Positions 48,772 to 56,607 of a stretch of DNA of 64,000 nucleotides are shown in pieces. Source of the stretch: an uncultured Pelagibacteraceae bacterium (GTDB lineage Bacteria > Pseudomonadota > Alphaproteobacteria > Pelagibacterales > Pelagibacteraceae). How positions within the stretch are numbered: the stretch's first letter is position 1; each line of letters begins with the position of its first letter. The stretch spans positions 19,222-83,221 of the forward strand of contig CACGZG010000002.1 of the NCBI GenBank assembly GCA_902577525.1, given 5' to 3'. Position numbers and translations under genes: made by a program. Under the pieces are notes generated by a model. It saw nothing but the letters and a program-made list of their open reading frames with translations, was not told the origin of the DNA and did not search any database.

Positions 48772-50337
48772 ATGAATGATATTAATTTAATAAAAAAACA
48801 AGCTGAGATTATTGTAAATCTTTATAATGCAAAAAAATTTGCTGAAGTAATACAAAAAGGCAAAATTTTGATAAAAAAATTTCCTGACCAAGTTATTTTT
48901 TACAATGCAACATCTTTATCATTATCAGCTTTAGACAGAGACGATGAGGCTCTACTTATTATGAAAAGTGCCTTGAGCAATCATCCAAAAAATATTCATG
49001 TATTAAATAATTTAGGTCTTATTTCAAATAAATTAAATAACAACAAACTTTCAAGAGAATATTTTAATCAAGCACTCTCTATAAATGATAATTTTGTAGA
49101 ATCTTTAATTAATTTAGGAAATCTTGAGCTTAGTGAAATGAATTTACAAGAATGTAAGTCACTATATGAAAAAGCTCTGAGTTTAAGCAAAAATAACCAG
49201 GCTAAAGAAATAGTTTATACGGCACTTGGTCACTATCATCAACAAATTGGAAATTTTGATGAGGCTTTAAATTATTTGTACAAAATAAATGATTTAAATC
49301 CAAATAATACAGGGGTAGATAAATCTATAAGTCTTATTCATAAATACAAGGATAAAAAAGATATTCATCTTGCTTCTATGGAAAAAAAAATAAGTTTAAA
49401 ATTATCTGAAGAACAAAATCAAAGTCTTTTTTTTGCACTAGGAAAAGCATATGAAGATCTAGGTTTACACAAGGAGTCTTTTAAATTTTTAAGCAAAGCG
49501 AACGAAATTGCAGATAATAGATATAAATACAACATTAACAAAGATATTGATTTATTTGATCAACTAAAGAGTTTATTTAAAAATTTTAGCTATACACTAA
49601 AAATTCCATCATCGAAAAAATTTATTTTTATAGTTGGAATGCCAAGATCTGGCACAACTTTAATTGAACAAATAGTATCAGCACATAGAGATGTTTTTGG
49701 AGCGGGAGAACTTAAATTTCTAAGTGAGTCTATTCATAAAAATATATTGTTAGAAAACAAATTTATTAATGAAAAAATTAAGGAAATCTCTTTTGAAAAT
49801 TTGAAAAGAATTCAAGAAGAATATTTGGAGGGAGTAAAATCATTCAATTATAGTGAAGAATTTTTAATCGATAAAGCTCCACTAAACTTTAGATGGATAG
49901 GTTTTATCAAAATTTTATTTCCCGAGTCTAAAATTATTCATTGTAAAAGAGATTCTATGGATATTTGTTTCTCAAATTTTAAAAATTCATTTTCTCACTC
50001 ATCATTATCTTTTAGTTATAACCAAGAAAAATTAGGAAATTTTTTTAATCTATACAAATCTTTAATGGAATATTGGAAAAATATTTTTGGCAATGAGATT
50101 TTTGATTTAGTTTATGAAGACTTGCTAAATAATCAAAAAAAATTAACCCAGGAATTATTAGATTTTTGTGGTTTATCTTGGGATGAGAATTGTATGAAAC
50201 CCCATAAAAATAAAAATAAGGTGGCTACAGCAAGTCTTGCTCAAGTTAGAGCTCCAATCTACAAATCTTCAATAAAAAAGTGGGAGAATTATTCAGAAGA
50301 ACTCTCAATATTAAAAAATATCGTATATAAAAATTAA
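48772..50337 (+). CDS. TPR-repeat sulfotransferase
   Basis: N-terminal TPR-like repeats ([18 protein letters not shown]); PAPS-binding [39 protein letters not shown]. Confidence 0.88.
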
Positions 50338-51666: not shown

Positions 51667-52098
51667 CTAGATTGGCTTAAAAATTACAATAAATATTATG
51701 AAAATAAGGAATAATGTGGGTATTTCATTAATATAACGATAAAATTTTGAGGATTTTTCATTCATATTTAATTGAAATTTATTTAGTAAAACGCCTAAGT
51801 AAAAGTGATAAACAGTTAATAGAATTACTAAAATCAATTTAAGTTGAAGCCATAAGTTAGCTAATTGGCCAAAACCTATTTCATGAATAAGTAACAAACC
51901 AAACAACCAGCTTAAAATCATTGCTGGGGTCATAATATAGAAAAAAAGCTTTCTCTCCATTGTTTTGAATACGTCAGTAATAATTTCATTATTATTTTCA
52001 GAATGATAAACAAAAATTCTTGGTAAATACAAAAGACCCGCCATCCAAGAAATTACAGCTATTAAATGGAGACTTTTGAAGAGTAAGTAAATATTCAT
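51667..52098 (-). CDS. hemJ: Protoporphyrinogen oxidase HemJ
   Basis: KSLHLIAVISWMAGLLYLPRIFVYH, MERKL, NEIPT. Confidence 0.93.
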   Translation of the reverse strand: MNIYLLFKSLHLIAVISWMAGLLYLPRIFVYHSENNNEIITDVFKTMERKLFFYIMTPAMILSWLFGLLLIHEIGFGQLANLWLQLKLILVILLTVYHFYLGVLLNKFQLNMNEKSSKFYRYINEIPTLFLIFIIFIVIFKPI

Positions 52099-52099
52099 T

Positions 52100-53126
52100 T
52101 TATAAACAAGGACATTTTTTAAATTGAGTCGGGCATTGTATTTTGGGGGGGGTATAAATCTTCAGAAAACATTCTTTCTTCCTTCTTTATTACAAGAGAT
52201 GACAGAGAATTAATAAAATCTTTATTTGTCCCAAGAGCTGGAACTCTTATGTAATCAATACAGCCATTCTTTTCTGCAAGTTCTTTATATTCTATATCCA
52301 GCTCAACCAAAGTTTCGGAATGTTCCGAAACAAATGCAATAGGAACTAAAACTATTTTTTTACCTAATTTAGAATTTTCTATTATTACATCTTCTGTGGA
52401 TGGACCAATCCATTTCAAGGGTCCTACACGGCTTTGGTAACTAAGAACCCAATCAAGATTTTTAATATTTAGTTTGCTAATTATTTTTTCTACAGATTTT
52501 TCTACTTGCCACTGATAAGGATCACCTTTTTTAATGTTCTTCTCTGGTAAACCATGAGCTGAAAAAATTAATTTAAAGTTTTCTATTTTATCAATTTTTT
52601 TTAATATCTCATCAATATGCCCTTTTACAAAAAACTCTTCTGTCGGATAACAACAAATTATCGAGGTTTTTGTTTTATAATTATTTTTTTTACAAACATT
52701 TATCCATTCATTAATCGATGATCCAGAAGTAGCGGCAGAATATTGTGGATATAGTGGCAACAAAATAACCTCCTCTGGACTATAGGATTTAACATCATTT
52801 AATACTTTTTCAGCTCTTGGGTGCCAACATCTCATCACAACAAAACATTTATATGAATTCTTTTCATCTTGTTGGTTTAGTTTTTTTTCCAATGCATTAG
52901 ATTGTTCAAGTGTTAATTTTAAGATAGGAGAAGATCCACCAAGTTCTTCATATATTTTTTTTGCTATTGGTGCTCTACGTTTAGAAATAAGTTTTGCCAA
53001 AGGGTATCTTAAAAAATTAGGTAAGTTTAAAATCGCCGGATCATAAAAAAGATTAAATAGAAAAGGCTCTACATTATCTAATTTGTCTGGGCCCCCTAAA
53101 TTAAATAAAATTATTGCTTTTTTCAT
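52100..53126 (-). CDS. hemH: Ferrochelatase; apparent +1 frameshift in a G8 tract near the 3' end
   Basis: NLGGP, LYPQYS, SAHGLP, SYQSRVGP, FVSEHSETL. Removing one base at 52145-52152 restores ...PPKIQCPTQFKKCPCL* ending at 52100. Confidence 0.93.
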
Positions 53127-54127
53127 TAGTAATCCTTTATAGATTTTATTAAATAATCCATCATATCAGGATTAGTTTCTGGCAATACACCATGCCCTAA
53201 ATTAAAGATATAAGGATGATCTTTAAATATATCTAGGTATTTTTTAGATTCTTTTTTTATATTTTCTTTATCAGTTAATAAAACTTTTGGATCCATTCCA
53301 CCCTGAACTGGTATTTTAATATCTTTACTTATTTGTAATGGATCAACTTGGTAATCAATACAAATTGCATCTGGTTTTACAATCTCACAATAATTTTTAT
53401 AATTTTTAATACCTCTTGGGAAACAAATCACAGGTATTTTTAATGATTTTATATAATTTACTAAATTATAAGTTGGAATATAAACAAAATTTGGTAAATC
53501 AGCTTCTCTTAATAACCCGGCCCAACTGTCAAATATCTGTATAACTTGTGCTCCATTTTCAATTTGATTTTTTATGTGAATTTTTAAAAATTTTTCAAGG
53601 ATAATTAATATTCTGTTGATTAAAAAATTATCTTTAAAAAAATTATCATTTAATTTTAGTTTTGGGGACTGTTTGTTAATCATATAAACTAATAAAGTCC
53701 ATGGGGCACCAACAAAACCTATGGTAATCTTATTTTTCACTAATTCACTTCTACTTACCATTTCGATTGCTTTATAAACTGGGTAAACTTTTTCAACAAA
53801 ATCGATTTCATCGATTTTTGAAATTACTTTTAAATCTAACTCTCCTAAAATTGGACCAATATTCTTTATAAATTCTACTTTCTGATTCAATCCGTATGGT
53901 AACATTAAAATATCAGAAAATATTATTGCTGCATCCAACTCAAATCTTCTTAAAGGTTGTAATGTTATTTCAGCAGACAATTTTGAATTAAGACATAATT
54001 TTATAAAATCAGGATTTTGTTTTCTTATATCTCTGAACTCTGGTAAGTATCTACCTGCTTGTCTCATAATCCATACAGGATTTAGATCAGTTCGTTTATT
54101 AATTAATACTTCTTTGATAAGTGACAT
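53126..54127 (-). CDS. hemE: Uroporphyrinogen decarboxylase
   Basis: VWIMRQAGRYLPE, FSDIL, QIFDSWA, FNLGHG. Confidence 0.96.
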   Translation of the reverse strand: MSLIKEVLINKRTDLNPVWIMRQAGRYLPEFRDIRKQNPDFIKLCLNSKLSAEITLQPLRRFELDAAIIFSDILMLPYGLNQKVEFIKNIGPILGELDLKVISKIDEIDFVEKVYPVYKAIEMVSRSELVKNKITIGFVGAPWTLLVYMINKQSPKLKLNDNFFKDNFLINRILIILEKFLKIHIKNQIENGAQVIQIFDSWAGLLREADLPNFVYIPTYNLVNYIKSLKIPVICFPRGIKNYKNYCEIVKPDAICIDYQVDPLQISKDIKIPVQGGMDPKVLLTDKENIKKESKKYLDIFKDHPYIFNLGHGVLPETNPDMMDYLIKSIKDY

Positions 54128-54430
54128 AAAATATAAATTATAATTTATTGTATTTGTAGTATAGCTTGTGGATAATGGTAATTAAAAATTATACATTTTT
54201 TATCAACAAATTATCCCATTCCACTTATCAAATTTAACTTGAATCTGTGACATTTTATATTTAATCAACAGTTTCTATTAACTTTGGAATTAATTAATAA
54301 ATTTGTTTAAAAATGTGAATAATTTTAAAATTATACATTATATTAAAAATAATCCTTTAAACAGTTATCTTTATAATAATAATACAATTTTTATAAACAT
54401 TTTATTAACTAAATAGATAAAAGTTTTTTA
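54128..54430. other. oriC: Probable chromosomal replication origin (oriC)
   Basis: Largest non-coding gap (303 nt), upstream of hemE. DnaA boxes: TGTGGATAA 54167-54175 (perfect), TTATCAACA 54200-54208 and TGTGAATAA 54314-54322 (1 mismatch each), weaker ones at 54262 and 54391. GANTC at 54241. Core genes diverge from this point. Confidence 0.85.
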
Positions 54431-55063
54431 TTATTTTTTCTTATATTGATTATAAAAAAATTGTTTTAATGATCTAGATATTCCACCTATTTTACTTCTT
54501 TTAATTAGTTTTGGTTTATTATTATAAATTTCCATTCTATAACCAGTATTTTTATTTAAAGGTTTTTTCCATGATTTTCCATAAAGATAACGGCAAATAT
54601 TTTTAGGTTTATTTGGCAAGTTAACATTTTTAAATTTTTTACTTTTTTTAATTGGAAAAATTAATCTTTTAGGAATATGTAAAGTGTGACTTTTTAAATT
54701 AATTGAAGACAAAAAATTATGTTTTTCCTCTATATATGTGTTCCTAGGATTATTAATATAAAAATATAGATCAACAAAAGTTTTTATTTTTTTATTTTTA
54801 CGCACTAATTGAATAAAATATTTGTTAATAACTTTTTTATTTATCTTAAAAATCTTTAGTTTTTTTAATACTTTAAGTATTTTTTTTTTAAATTTAATAT
54901 CTATTAAAAGATCAATATCGTCATCACCTCTTAAAATATTTTTTTCTCTTACAACTCCTAAAAGCGTTCCATAAAAAATAAATCCTCTTTCCTTTTTAAA
55001 AACTTTAGAAATTATTAACAAATTTTCTAAATTTAATTTTTGTATGATGTCTTTATTATTCAT
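54431..55063 (-). CDS. LicD-family nucleotidyltransferase-fold phosphotransferase
   Basis: FYGTLLGVVRE...DDDIDL matches the LicD GTLLG-x-VR...DDDID motif; later FVDLY. Confidence 0.75.
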   Translation of the reverse strand: MNNKDIIQKLNLENLLIISKVFKKERGFIFYGTLLGVVREKNILRGDDDIDLLIDIKFKKKILKVLKKLKIFKINKKVINKYFIQLVRKNKKIKTFVDLYFYINNPRNTYIEEKHNFLSSINLKSHTLHIPKRLIFPIKKSKKFKNVNLPNKPKNICRYLYGKSWKKPLNKNTGYRMEIYNNKPKLIKRSKIGGISRSLKQFFYNQYKKK

Positions 55064-55692
55064 TAAAATTTAAAGATAATTCTACTTAAATTTGGATTAT
55101 CGTTTTTAACTATAGATAAATTTTTTGCTGATTTTTTATAAATCACTTTAAGTTTTATTTTGCTGCTTATTTTTTTTATAAACTTTTTAGGATCTATAAT
55201 TCTTCTGAAATGTCCTTTTTCAAACTCAATTATATCATTATGTTTTCTAATTTTTTTTTTCTGAAACATTTTGTCTTTGTGATTTCTAAATTCAAAGAAA
55301 GCTAAAGTGTTTTTTTTTTTTATTTTTTTAATAAGGGTAATTAATTTATTTTCGTTCTTTTCATTTATTGCGTGCACAAAAAATCTACAATAAATAAAGT
55401 CAAATTTTTTAGACATTGTATTTTTCCCTATATCAAATTTTAGAAATTTTAAATTTTTACTTGATTTTAAAGAGTTATTTTTTATTGCATTCTTTGAAAT
55501 ATCAATCGCTGTAACTTTTAAATCATTCTTACTAAAGAAAAAACTATCTCTACCGTTTCCACATCCTATATCAATTATTTCGCTGTTTTTATCTATTTTT
55601 TTTATAACAAATCTAGCAAAACTTGATTCTTTAATTTTTCTGTTATTTTTATAGTAAGTGTCCCAGTAATTGATTAGTAAATTTTTTTTCAT
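55063..55692 (-). CDS. Class I SAM-dependent methyltransferase
   Basis: IIDIGCGNGRD (motif I), AIDIS (motif II), FDFIYCRFFVHAI. Confidence 0.85.
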   Translation of the reverse strand: MKKNLLINYWDTYYKNNRKIKESSFARFVIKKIDKNSEIIDIGCGNGRDSFFFSKNDLKVTAIDISKNAIKNNSLKSSKNLKFLKFDIGKNTMSKKFDFIYCRFFVHAINEKNENKLITLIKKIKKKNTLAFFEFRNHKDKMFQKKKIRKHNDIIEFEKGHFRRIIDPKKFIKKISSKIKLKVIYKKSAKNLSIVKNDNPNLSRIIFKF

Positions 55693-55781
55693 TATATTTT
55701 AATTTTAAAGTTAATATAACTAGATTTATGTTTAACAAGCTTAAAATTGCAATTATATATTAACATATATATTTATTTATA

Positions 55782-56607
55782 ATGAATAACGTCTATCAAA
55801 TATATTTAATTTCAGACTCTACTGGAGAAACGCTAGATAGAATTTTTACTGCTATTAAGGCTCAATTCAAGAATATAAATTACAAAGTTTATACCTACTC
55901 ATTTACTAGAACCGAAAATCAAATTCTTAAAATATTAACTGATGCCGAAAAAATTTCTAATTCTATAATTTTATATTCTATAGTAGATAGTAATTTGGCA
56001 AAATATTTAGCTAATACAAGCAATGATAAAAAAATACCATGTTTTGGAGTATTAGGAGATTTAATATTAAGTTTTTCAAAACTTTTAAATCAAAAAGCAT
56101 CTCATCAACCCAGTGGACAATACGAATTAAATGATGAGTATTATAAAAAAAATTGCTGCAATTCAATTCACAATGAACCATGATGATGGAAATCTTGTAA
56201 AAGAAATTAATAAATCAGATATAATATTATTAGGAGTTAGCAGAACAAGCAAAACACCAACCTCAATTTATTTAGCAAACAAAGGTTTTAAAACTTCCAA
56301 TATACCTTTAGTAAATGAAAATTCTGTTCCTAAAATATTAAGGGAAAACCCAAAAATTGCTTGTGTTGTAGGTCTTAATACAGAACCAGAAAGACTTGTT
56401 GATATAAGAAAAAATAGAATGAATTCATTAAAAGAAACAGAAAATAAAACTTATACAAATCTTGAAAAAATTAAAAAAGAAGTTGATGATGCAAAGAATA
56501 CGTTTAAAAAATATAAATGGCCTGTAATTGATGTAACAAGAAAATCAGTTGAGGAAACAGCAGCATCAATTATCAAAATTTACGAAATTTATAAACAAAA
56601 TGGTTGA
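55782..56607 (+). pseudogene. ppsR: PEP synthetase/PPDK regulatory kinase-pyrophosphorylase, split by a +1 base in an A8 run (real lesion or sequencing error)
   Basis: ISDSTGET in ORF 55782-56183 and GVSRTSKTP in ORF 56131-56607. A8 at 56145-56152; A7 would give the continuous YYKKIAAIQF. Confidence 0.85.

Follow-up and report, generated by a model that had tools for sequence, protein, structure and literature searches.

In Caulobacter and Rickettsia, the replication origin reportedly lies between hemE and RP001 (DUF299, that is ppsR), a synteny (hemE-Cori-RP001) that Brassinga et al. are said to have described in 2001. In the 64,000-nt stretch of DNA from an uncultured Pelagibacteraceae (SAR11) bacterium analysed here, called the window throughout, two genes stand between an origin-like region beside hemE and the ppsR gene. 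One encodes a small LicD-type transferase (LicD) and the other a class I S-adenosylmethionine (SAM)-dependent methyltransferase (MT); the pair is called the cassette. Since SAR11 genomes are extremely streamlined and syntenic, the placement of their variable genes is central to understanding phage or grazer escape and population structure. Hypervariable regions (HVRs) of SAR11 were reportedly described by Wilhelm in 2007. Elsewhere, a WbdD-type kinase and methyltransferase cap the O-antigen with methyl phosphate. LicD-like phosphotransferases have been described in clusters for cell-surface phosphonate tailoring (Rice et al. 2019, PMC6697681). Small SAR11 islands at fixed positions without mobile elements have been documented (Grote 2012, PMC3448164; PMC11796062), and 61 SAR11 islands are given in one of these studies (PMC11796062).

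How does the present locus compare? It shares with the flexible islands of SAR11 a fixed position between core genes, a lineage-variable content, the lack of mobile-element genes, and genes of low guanine-cytosine (GC) content that are predicted to be envelope-related. Unlike the other islands, it abuts the DnaA-box region beside hemE, puts the ppsR promoter at a distance from the origin region, and is occupied in only about 8% of the contigs sampled. As at the Caulobacter and Rickettsia origins, a short AT-rich spacer that carries DnaA boxes separates the divergent hemE and ppsR, with maf-aroE-coaE-dnaQ on one side and hemH-rho-mnmE-gidAB-parAB on the other. Unlike at those origins, one to three accessory genes lie here between the box region and ppsR, and the origin role is a presumed one. 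The finding is a refinement of what is known about SAR11 flexible islands and LicD biology, not a new kind of system.

A polymorphic gene slot beside a presumed origin

In one SAR11 (Pelagibacter) subclade, the hemE-ppsR interval was found to hold a small gene slot that is polymorphic; the filled form is the minority state, and the extra genes always stand at the ppsR start. A sequence-only reading of the window had placed two coupled genes between the DnaA-box region and ppsR, and the two open reading frames (ORFs) are as it described. Base 55063 is common to the MT stop codon and the LicD start codon (TAATG on the minus strand), which makes a 1-nt overlap. The features are listed below.

53126..54127, minus strand: hemE (uroporphyrinogen decarboxylase), left flank of the slot (Pfam URO-D, E 2e-82)
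54128..54410, no strand: oriC-like intergenic region, kept whole (end-to-end alignment with cassette-free congeners; DnaA-box cluster)
54167-54175, minus strand: DnaA-box-like site, a perfect TTATCCACA (box search)
54200-54208, 54314-54322 and 54391-54399: DnaA-box-like sites (box search, at most 1 mismatch)
54431..55063, minus strand: LicD/FKRP-like transferase of the nucleotidyltransferase fold, 210 aa (Pfam LicD, motifs, fold)
55063..55692, minus strand: class I SAM-dependent methyltransferase, 209 aa, translationally coupled to LicD (Pfam, AF2 model)
55693..55781, no strand: 89-nt spacer from the MT-LicD pair to the divergent ppsR, standing in place of the ancestral ppsR upstream region
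55782..56607, plus strand: ppsR (phosphoenolpyruvate (PEP) synthetase / pyruvate phosphate dikinase regulator, the former DUF299), right flank (Pfam Kinase-PPPase on both halves)

In every related locus compared, hemE adjoins the origin-like spacer, and maf, aroE, coaE and dnaQ come after ppsR in the window. Is the interval usually empty? The earlier reading took hemE, oriC and ppsR to be normally contiguous, and this holds widely. The hemE start and the ppsR start are 261-284 nt apart, with no gene between, in 29/29 other genomes of the same genus. A metagenome sample drawn through hemE (76-84% identical to the hemE of the window) gave 72 informative environmental contigs, 66 empty and 6 filled. 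The cassette is not fixed across SAR11. LicD of the type found in the window (window-type LicD) occurs in just 7 of the 401 species representatives of the genus and, where its location could be checked, lies elsewhere in the genome; the hemE locus of genome G207 is empty. Eight of the nine closest LicD homologs looked up in public assemblies occupy the same slot. Since independent contigs from different samples agree, the arrangement is real and not an assembly chimera. Five states of the slot were found: empty, MT-LicD, LicD only, LicD with a gene resembling a pyrroloquinoline quinone (PQQ)-dependent dehydrogenase, and MT-LicD with this PQQ gene. The filled slots, with the identity of their LicD to that of the window, are as follows.

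L059: LicD 91% identical; MT-LicD, with the MT frameshifted
A 74.7-kb contig of the Joint Genome Institute (JGI): LicD 73% identical
L106-L109: LicD 71% identical; the protein is found in 39 sample blocks including Tara
L111: LicD 57% identical; LicD only
L110 (LicD 64% identical) and L121/L122 (56%): LicD and a convergent 670-aa PQQ-dehydrogenase-like gene
L123 (LicD 59% identical) and L125/L126 (52%): MT-LicD and the PQQ gene

The PQQ gene, present in L110, L121-L126 and L196 and convergent with LicD, encodes a 670-aa beta-propeller protein that scores below the NCBIfam cut-offs. The genome of the window has a 59% identical PQQ-like copy on another contig (G000:C7:32933-34912).

The segment from 54128 to about 54410 is collinear with the whole 261-284-nt hemE-ppsR intergenic region of the cassette-free relatives, including its ppsR-proximal terminal block. 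The accessory genes have therefore gone in precisely where ppsR begins, leaving the DnaA-box region in one piece beside hemE. The 303-nt spacer between hemE and LicD has 4 matches to TTATNCACA within 233 nt, against about 0.3 expected (at most 1 mismatch allowed; expectation from the window-wide density of 79 per 64 kb), and conserved blocks run through the region across 16 aligned loci. Judging from alphaproteobacterial synteny and the conserved DnaA-box cluster, the hemE-ppsR spacer is likely to be oriC. GC skew was set aside as a separate line of evidence for the origin: it changes with the gene strand and has two local minima on the contig, a deeper one at about 21 kb and another at about 55.8 kb of the window, each coinciding with a switch of gene strand.

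The earlier reading had noted no visible terminator, integrase, tRNA or target duplication, and the searches agree with it. No terminator-like site was found in the cassette region, and no significant hairpin past the LicD stop, where the 3′ region folds no better than shuffled sequences (z -0.66). An Rfam search of 53.9-56.0 kb gave no match, neither a tRNA nor an integrase was found at the slot, and the search for flanking direct repeats gave nothing convincing, with low-complexity AT matches only. A target-site duplication was considered, since both ends of the spacer resemble the ppsR-proximal box, and was rejected: the repeats are low-complexity AT, and the 89-nt spacer (55693-55781) cannot be aligned with the empty loci. 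Nor can it be aligned with other slot variants, while it is kept in L059 and L106. The best sigma-70-like match of the region (10/12) lies in it at 55732-55761 on the plus strand, and promoter-like matches show no enrichment. A phage origin of the pair was dropped, because searches of phage genomes and PHROGs gave no informative match.

Transcripts of the pair are predicted probably to read through into the DnaA-box region and into hemE on the same strand. In Caulobacter, hemE transcription normally begins inside the origin. Read-through from LicD, being in the same direction as hemE, may therefore disturb the origin less than it appears. Where the slot also holds the PQQ gene, LicD is not directed towards the origin.

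At 17-20% against 25-30% around it, the GC content of the cassette is the lowest of the neighbourhood, and the cassette carries 3 of the 19 homopolymer runs of at least 10 nt in the window. An A12 tract (coding strand) inside MT at 55310-55321 is one of the two longest homopolymers of the 64 kb. In L059 (4858-5488) this tract is A13 and MT is broken into pieces of 133 aa and 68 aa; a cluster of 133-aa shortened MT sequences (P0152) has 5 members. Slipped-strand on/off switching could lie behind this, or an assembly error that recurs. An A8 run at 56145-56152 likewise breaks the ppsR gene of the window into two frames that overlap (55782-56183 and 56131-56607). The gene is intact in L059 (A7, 274 aa; contig 93-100% identical) and is a single ORF of 273-276 aa in the relatives. 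Either the A8 run is a sequencing error in the homopolymer or the gene is truly frameshifted.

History of the slot and selection on its genes

The sequence-only reading described the pair as wedged into its place. As a recent insertion this does not hold: identities of the LicD at the site fall to 52-57% with its position kept, so the arrangement is an old one in the SAR11 subclade. Divergence of the cassette tracks that of its flanks, with identities of hemE and LicD of 94/91% in L059, 78/71% in L106, 75/64% in L110 and 71/57% in L111. In the LicD tree, the window-type LicDs of SAR11 are one clade (support 99), and the copies in the origin slot could form a single group (support 73), next to one whose members lie in glycosyltransferase islands. 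In the hemE and ppsR trees, the filled loci are scattered among the empty ones and need 5-6 changes, with many branches weakly supported; the filled L123/L125, for instance, cluster with the empty L030, which is from a complete genome. The pattern fits a single early capture that was then lost precisely and repeatedly; it also fits the swapping of alleles by homologous recombination via the flanks. Homologous recombination through the conserved flanks, plus deletions, is the most likely cause of the varying slot contents. The suggestion that the origin side acts as a recombination-swapped accessory slot is supported, as far as a swappable slot goes, by the five states, the absence of mobility genes and the interleaving of filled and empty alleles on the two flanking-gene trees.

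Both genes are, by the sequence comparison, under purifying selection. The ratio of nonsynonymous to synonymous substitution rates (dN/dS) of LicD against its 91% identical counterpart in L059 is 0.086, while hemE has 0.099 and maf 0.052. That of MT against L106 is about 0.05, with dS saturated. Marine data contain more than 100 clusters of LicD and more than 250 of MT of the same length, and many independent assemblies carry intact orthologs of 209/210 aa, with identities as low as about 52%. A decaying remnant or an assembly artefact without function, which the very low GC, the dense homopolymers and the frameshifts in the MT of L059 and the ppsR of the window might suggest, is largely refuted by these orthologs, by dN/dS values (0.05-0.09) like those of the housekeeping flanks, and by the recurrence of the arrangement in different samples.

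Other parts of the origin neighbourhood vary as well. The hemH-hemJ region (window 51667-53126) has two versions across L106, L110, L111 and many of L025-L053. One has a hemH 74-80% identical to that of the window plus hemJ (UPF0093); the other has a 370-aa hemH of 23-31% identity, mostly followed by a flavodoxin-like (HemG-type) gene, and in L110 it is paired with UPF0093. This looks like a second swapped module beside the origin. The gene for a sulfotransferase with tetratricopeptide repeats (TPR) between rho and mnmE (48772-50337) is not private to this genome, as two further lineages with the cassette have it (the P0010 contig and L106). On the P0010 contig, a second sulfotransferase adjoins the first.

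The LicD-type protein and the methyltransferase

Does the 210-aa protein belong to the LicD family? Its Pfam LicD (PF04991) score is 23.5 bits, just above the cut-off of 22.6, and several orthologs of 52-73% identity carry a precomputed PF04991 match. The N-terminus matches the NCBIfam cholinephosphotransferase Mf1 model. In an alignment of 22 sequences of 25-91% identity, G32, T33, L34, L35, G36, R39, D47, D49, D51 and D98 are invariant, giving GTLLG..R, the DxD metal site (D47/D49/D51), the third Asp D98 and also YG..W..P. The AlphaFold2 (AF2) model (predicted local distance difference test, pLDDT, 87.7; predicted template modelling score, pTM, 0.83) has as its top fold in the PDB the FKRP structure 6KAM with cytidine diphosphate (CDP)-ribitol (E 1.7e-5, TMq 0.56, 182 columns). 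A LicD family profile finds FKRP by sequence too (E 0.007), and a PDB sequence search with a narrower LicD profile gave nothing meaningful. The second-best structural match is LnuA, a lincosamide nucleotidyltransferase, and ANT(2'') matches too. Membership in the LicD family, as first proposed, therefore holds at the level of motifs and fold. With LicD, FKRP and fukutin (PF04991, users of CDP-choline or CDP-ribitol), the protein shares GTLLG..R, the DxD with a third Asp and the nucleotidyltransferase fold, and its relatives sit in glycan biosynthesis islands. Unlike them, it is minimal in size, has no LicA, LicB or LicC partners, and is obligately paired with a methyltransferase.

The MT matches Pfam Methyltransf_31/25/11 and TehB at E values of about 1e-9 to 1e-12 and carries DIGCGNGRD, a GxGxG-type SAM-binding motif. 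Its AF2 model (pLDDT 93.2) has a generic class I fold that matches more than 1000 methyltransferase structures. The invariant residues of the family include R48, R103, H107, R136, H161, R163 and R204, and these Arg and His residues may form a pocket for an anionic substrate. In a search of the MT profile against the PDB, plant and Plasmodium phosphoethanolamine N-methyltransferases are among the best matches (5WP5, E 1.3e-14; 3UJC, E 4.5e-11 over profile positions 32-175, mostly the SAM-binding core). An IY-x-R...H motif is common to both families.

The pairing extends well beyond SAR11. A locus search with a profile from 14 closer LicD sequences found MT directly upstream of LicD in Pelagibacteraceae, several Rhodobacteraceae genera, Oxalobacteraceae, Nitrosomonadaceae, Polynucleobacter, Flavobacteriaceae, Luminiphilus and Marinamargulisbacteria. 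By gene order, MT-LicD is a conserved dyad across several phyla and often stands alone. In SAR11 single-cell genomes, the dyad lies between genes for a nucleoside diphosphate (NDP)-sugar epimerase/dehydratase and GT2 and further GT2, GT17 and oxidoreductase genes. In Rhodobacteraceae and relatives (L073, L074, L077, L079, L086, L094), it is isolated among sucC, mdh and 2-oxoglutarate dehydrogenase genes. Since the dyad is isolated in several roseobacter genera too, standing alone is not peculiar to SAR11.

In genomes G167 and G117, a cytidylyltransferase-PEP mutase fusion (TIGR02320, 399 bits) is followed directly by a distantly paralogous MT-LicD pair. In these loci (L054, G167:C1:132001-152000; L056, G117:C16), the fusion, MT and LicD are on one strand inside an O-antigen-type island with a LIC12162-family transferase and an epimerase. 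Divergent from them are genes for a phosphonopyruvate decarboxylase-like thiamine pyrophosphate (TPP) enzyme (Ppd), an iron-containing alcohol dehydrogenase (Fe-ADH) and a CDP-alcohol phosphatidyltransferase. The gene content of this cluster is consistent with a surface decoration of the hydroxyethylphosphonate type.

In G023, a small P-loop kinase resembling adenosine phosphosulfate (APS) kinase (L055:10133-10660) is encoded directly upstream of an MT homolog of 44% identity (L055:9511-10143), within a glycan island with GT1, GT2 and a DegT aminotransferase. This recalls the capping of polysaccharides by a kinase and a methyltransferase. The likeness to WbdD capping is that the MT relative directly follows a small kinase in a glycan island; unlike there, the partner of MT in the window is a LicD-type transferase, not a kinase. 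Because the G023 relative follows a P-loop kinase, the analogy suggests that the MT subfamily partners with phosphate-installing enzymes. The common theme of these loci may be read as an enzyme that installs phosphate or phosphonate on an envelope polymer, together with a methyltransferase of this type.

Which enzyme could supply the donor? The sequence-only reading had noted the lack of a cytidylyltransferase at the locus. This was confirmed and extends to the genome, which is 90% complete, so that the absence of donor enzymes is strong evidence but not absolute. PF01467 and PF12804 searches of the genome gave no LicC/TagD/TarI/PntC-type cytidylyltransferase; the matches were CoaD-like, NadD-like and PanC-like ORFs (by size, with no NCBIfam scan), MobA, MurU, GalU, RmlA-like and ManC-like proteins, and a fusion of PseF with a methyltransferase. 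This fusion, a 583-aa PseF-like cytidylyltransferase with a C-terminal 2-ketoarginine methyltransferase-like domain (G000:C9, about 36935), is the only cytidine monophosphate (CMP)-forming sugar-activating enzyme found in the genome. The choline kinase family (PF01633) has no match there. No PEP mutase was found in the genome, its only superfamily match being the methylisocitrate lyase PrpB (TIGR02317, 370 bits), and neither a match to the PntC-PepM of G167 nor a Ppd was found. With PEP mutase, LicC/TagD-type cytidylyltransferases and choline kinase absent from the genome, neither the Lic-1 phosphocholine route nor the phosphonate route is supported for the cassette.

Proposed function and competing explanations

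The account favoured here, with modest confidence, is that the cassette is a functional accessory module in a polymorphic origin-side slot, whose LicD and MT together make a strain-variable surface decoration. The pair probably adds a methylated phosphate-linked group to the cell envelope. LicD would use a nucleotide-activated donor, of the CDP-alcohol, CMP-phosphonate or NDP-sugar type, to place a phosphate-linked substituent on a glycan or lipid of the envelope, while MT would methylate the phospho head group or its precursor. The surface would then vary from strain to strain, which, as the sequence-only reading suggested, may alter recognition by phages or grazers. Since neither the neighbourhood nor the rest of the genome encodes an activating enzyme dedicated to this task, the donor would have to be drawn from general metabolism.

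Several points weigh against this account. The Pfam LicD score is marginal, a small-molecule nucleotidyltransferase is the second-best fold match, and the fold search with MT does not discriminate substrates. The genome, though 90% complete, shows no donor-forming enzyme, and the Rhodobacteraceae dyad between sucC and mdh has no glycan genes nearby. The trees are poorly resolved, so that one gain with several losses is inseparable from recombinational swapping. The origin is placed by synteny and boxes, with an ambiguous GC skew.

A substrate outside the envelope is conceivable, since the second-best structural match is LnuA, with ANT(2'') matching as well. The LicD-like enzyme would then modify a soluble metabolite, a xenobiotic or a protein, and MT would belong to the same small-molecule pathway. 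The isolation of the pair among core metabolic genes, both in Rhodobacteraceae (sucC, mdh) and here (hemE, ppsR), and the lack of linked donor or acceptor genes fit this explanation. However, the protein has the LicD-specific motifs, its best match is FKRP over about 180 columns, and its nearest SAR11 paralogs located away from the slot are found in glycosyltransferase islands. The explanation is therefore considered unlikely, though it is the strongest of the competitors.

The sequence-only reading had offered, as an example, phosphoethanolamine transfer followed by N-methylation to phosphocholine. In that scheme, a CDP donor would give up phosphoethanolamine (or phosphocholine), which LicD would place on a surface glycan, while MT would N-methylate phosphoethanolamine to phosphocholine without choline uptake. 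The profile matches of MT to 5WP5 and 3UJC, the shared IY-x-R...H motif and the Mf1 match of the LicD N-terminus speak for it. However, the similarity of MT lies mainly in the part that binds SAM, and per domain an archaeal methyltransferase that is itself uncharacterised reaches an equal score. The conserved His107 falls one position ahead of the catalytic His in the phosphoethanolamine N-methyltransferases, whose phosphate-binding C-terminal part is unaligned. Moreover, with both a choline kinase and a CTP:phosphoethanolamine/phosphocholine cytidylyltransferase missing from the genome, no CDP donor would arise by known routes. The proposal is not supported by these results and is judged quite improbable.

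An equally improbable extension of the favoured account is a self-sufficient head-group system that would run on a universal cytidine-activated metabolite (such as CDP-diacylglycerol or CDP-methylerythritol) or on an NDP-sugar, with its placement at the origin selected. If true, there would be a methylated phosphodiester decoration of the envelope without a dedicated activation enzyme. The origin placement would then serve maximal gene dosage in slow growers, or read-through over the DnaA boxes into hemE would tune initiation. A surface-variation locus and replication control would thereby be physically coupled in the ocean's most abundant bacterium.

Phosphonate tailoring is still less probable. 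In this case, LicD would move 2-aminoethylphosphonate or 2-hydroxyethylphosphonate from a CMP-phosphonate to surface glycans, and MT would modify the product. As in the Pnt clusters (PntC-Ppm fusions with LicD-like proteins; PMC6697681), other MT-LicD paralogs of SAR11 lie downstream of a cytidylyltransferase-PEP mutase fusion, with Ppd and Fe-ADH in G167 and G117, which follows a logic of activation, transfer and tailoring. PEP mutase is present in 7/7 genomes with a LicD of the G167/G117 type, and the full-length window-type LicD relatives in L075 and L088 adjoin PntC-PepM. Unlike in the Pnt clusters, the genome of the window has no PEP mutase, Ppd or PntC, and the window-type pair is rarely linked to PEP mutase, which occurs in just 1/7 genomes with window-type LicD and there on another contig. 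The PEP-mutase-linked LicDs of SAR11 form a very distant branch of the LicD tree. Because PEP mutase is absent genome-wide, and because PEP-mutase-linked and window-type LicDs split cleanly, this explanation was downgraded.

Implications

Two things are identified here. The first is a small flexible hotspot that abuts the presumed origin on the ppsR side only and leaves the DnaA-box region untouched. The second is a widespread MT-LicD dyad, under purifying selection and without a recognisable donor pathway, which makes it a defined target for marine envelope biochemistry.

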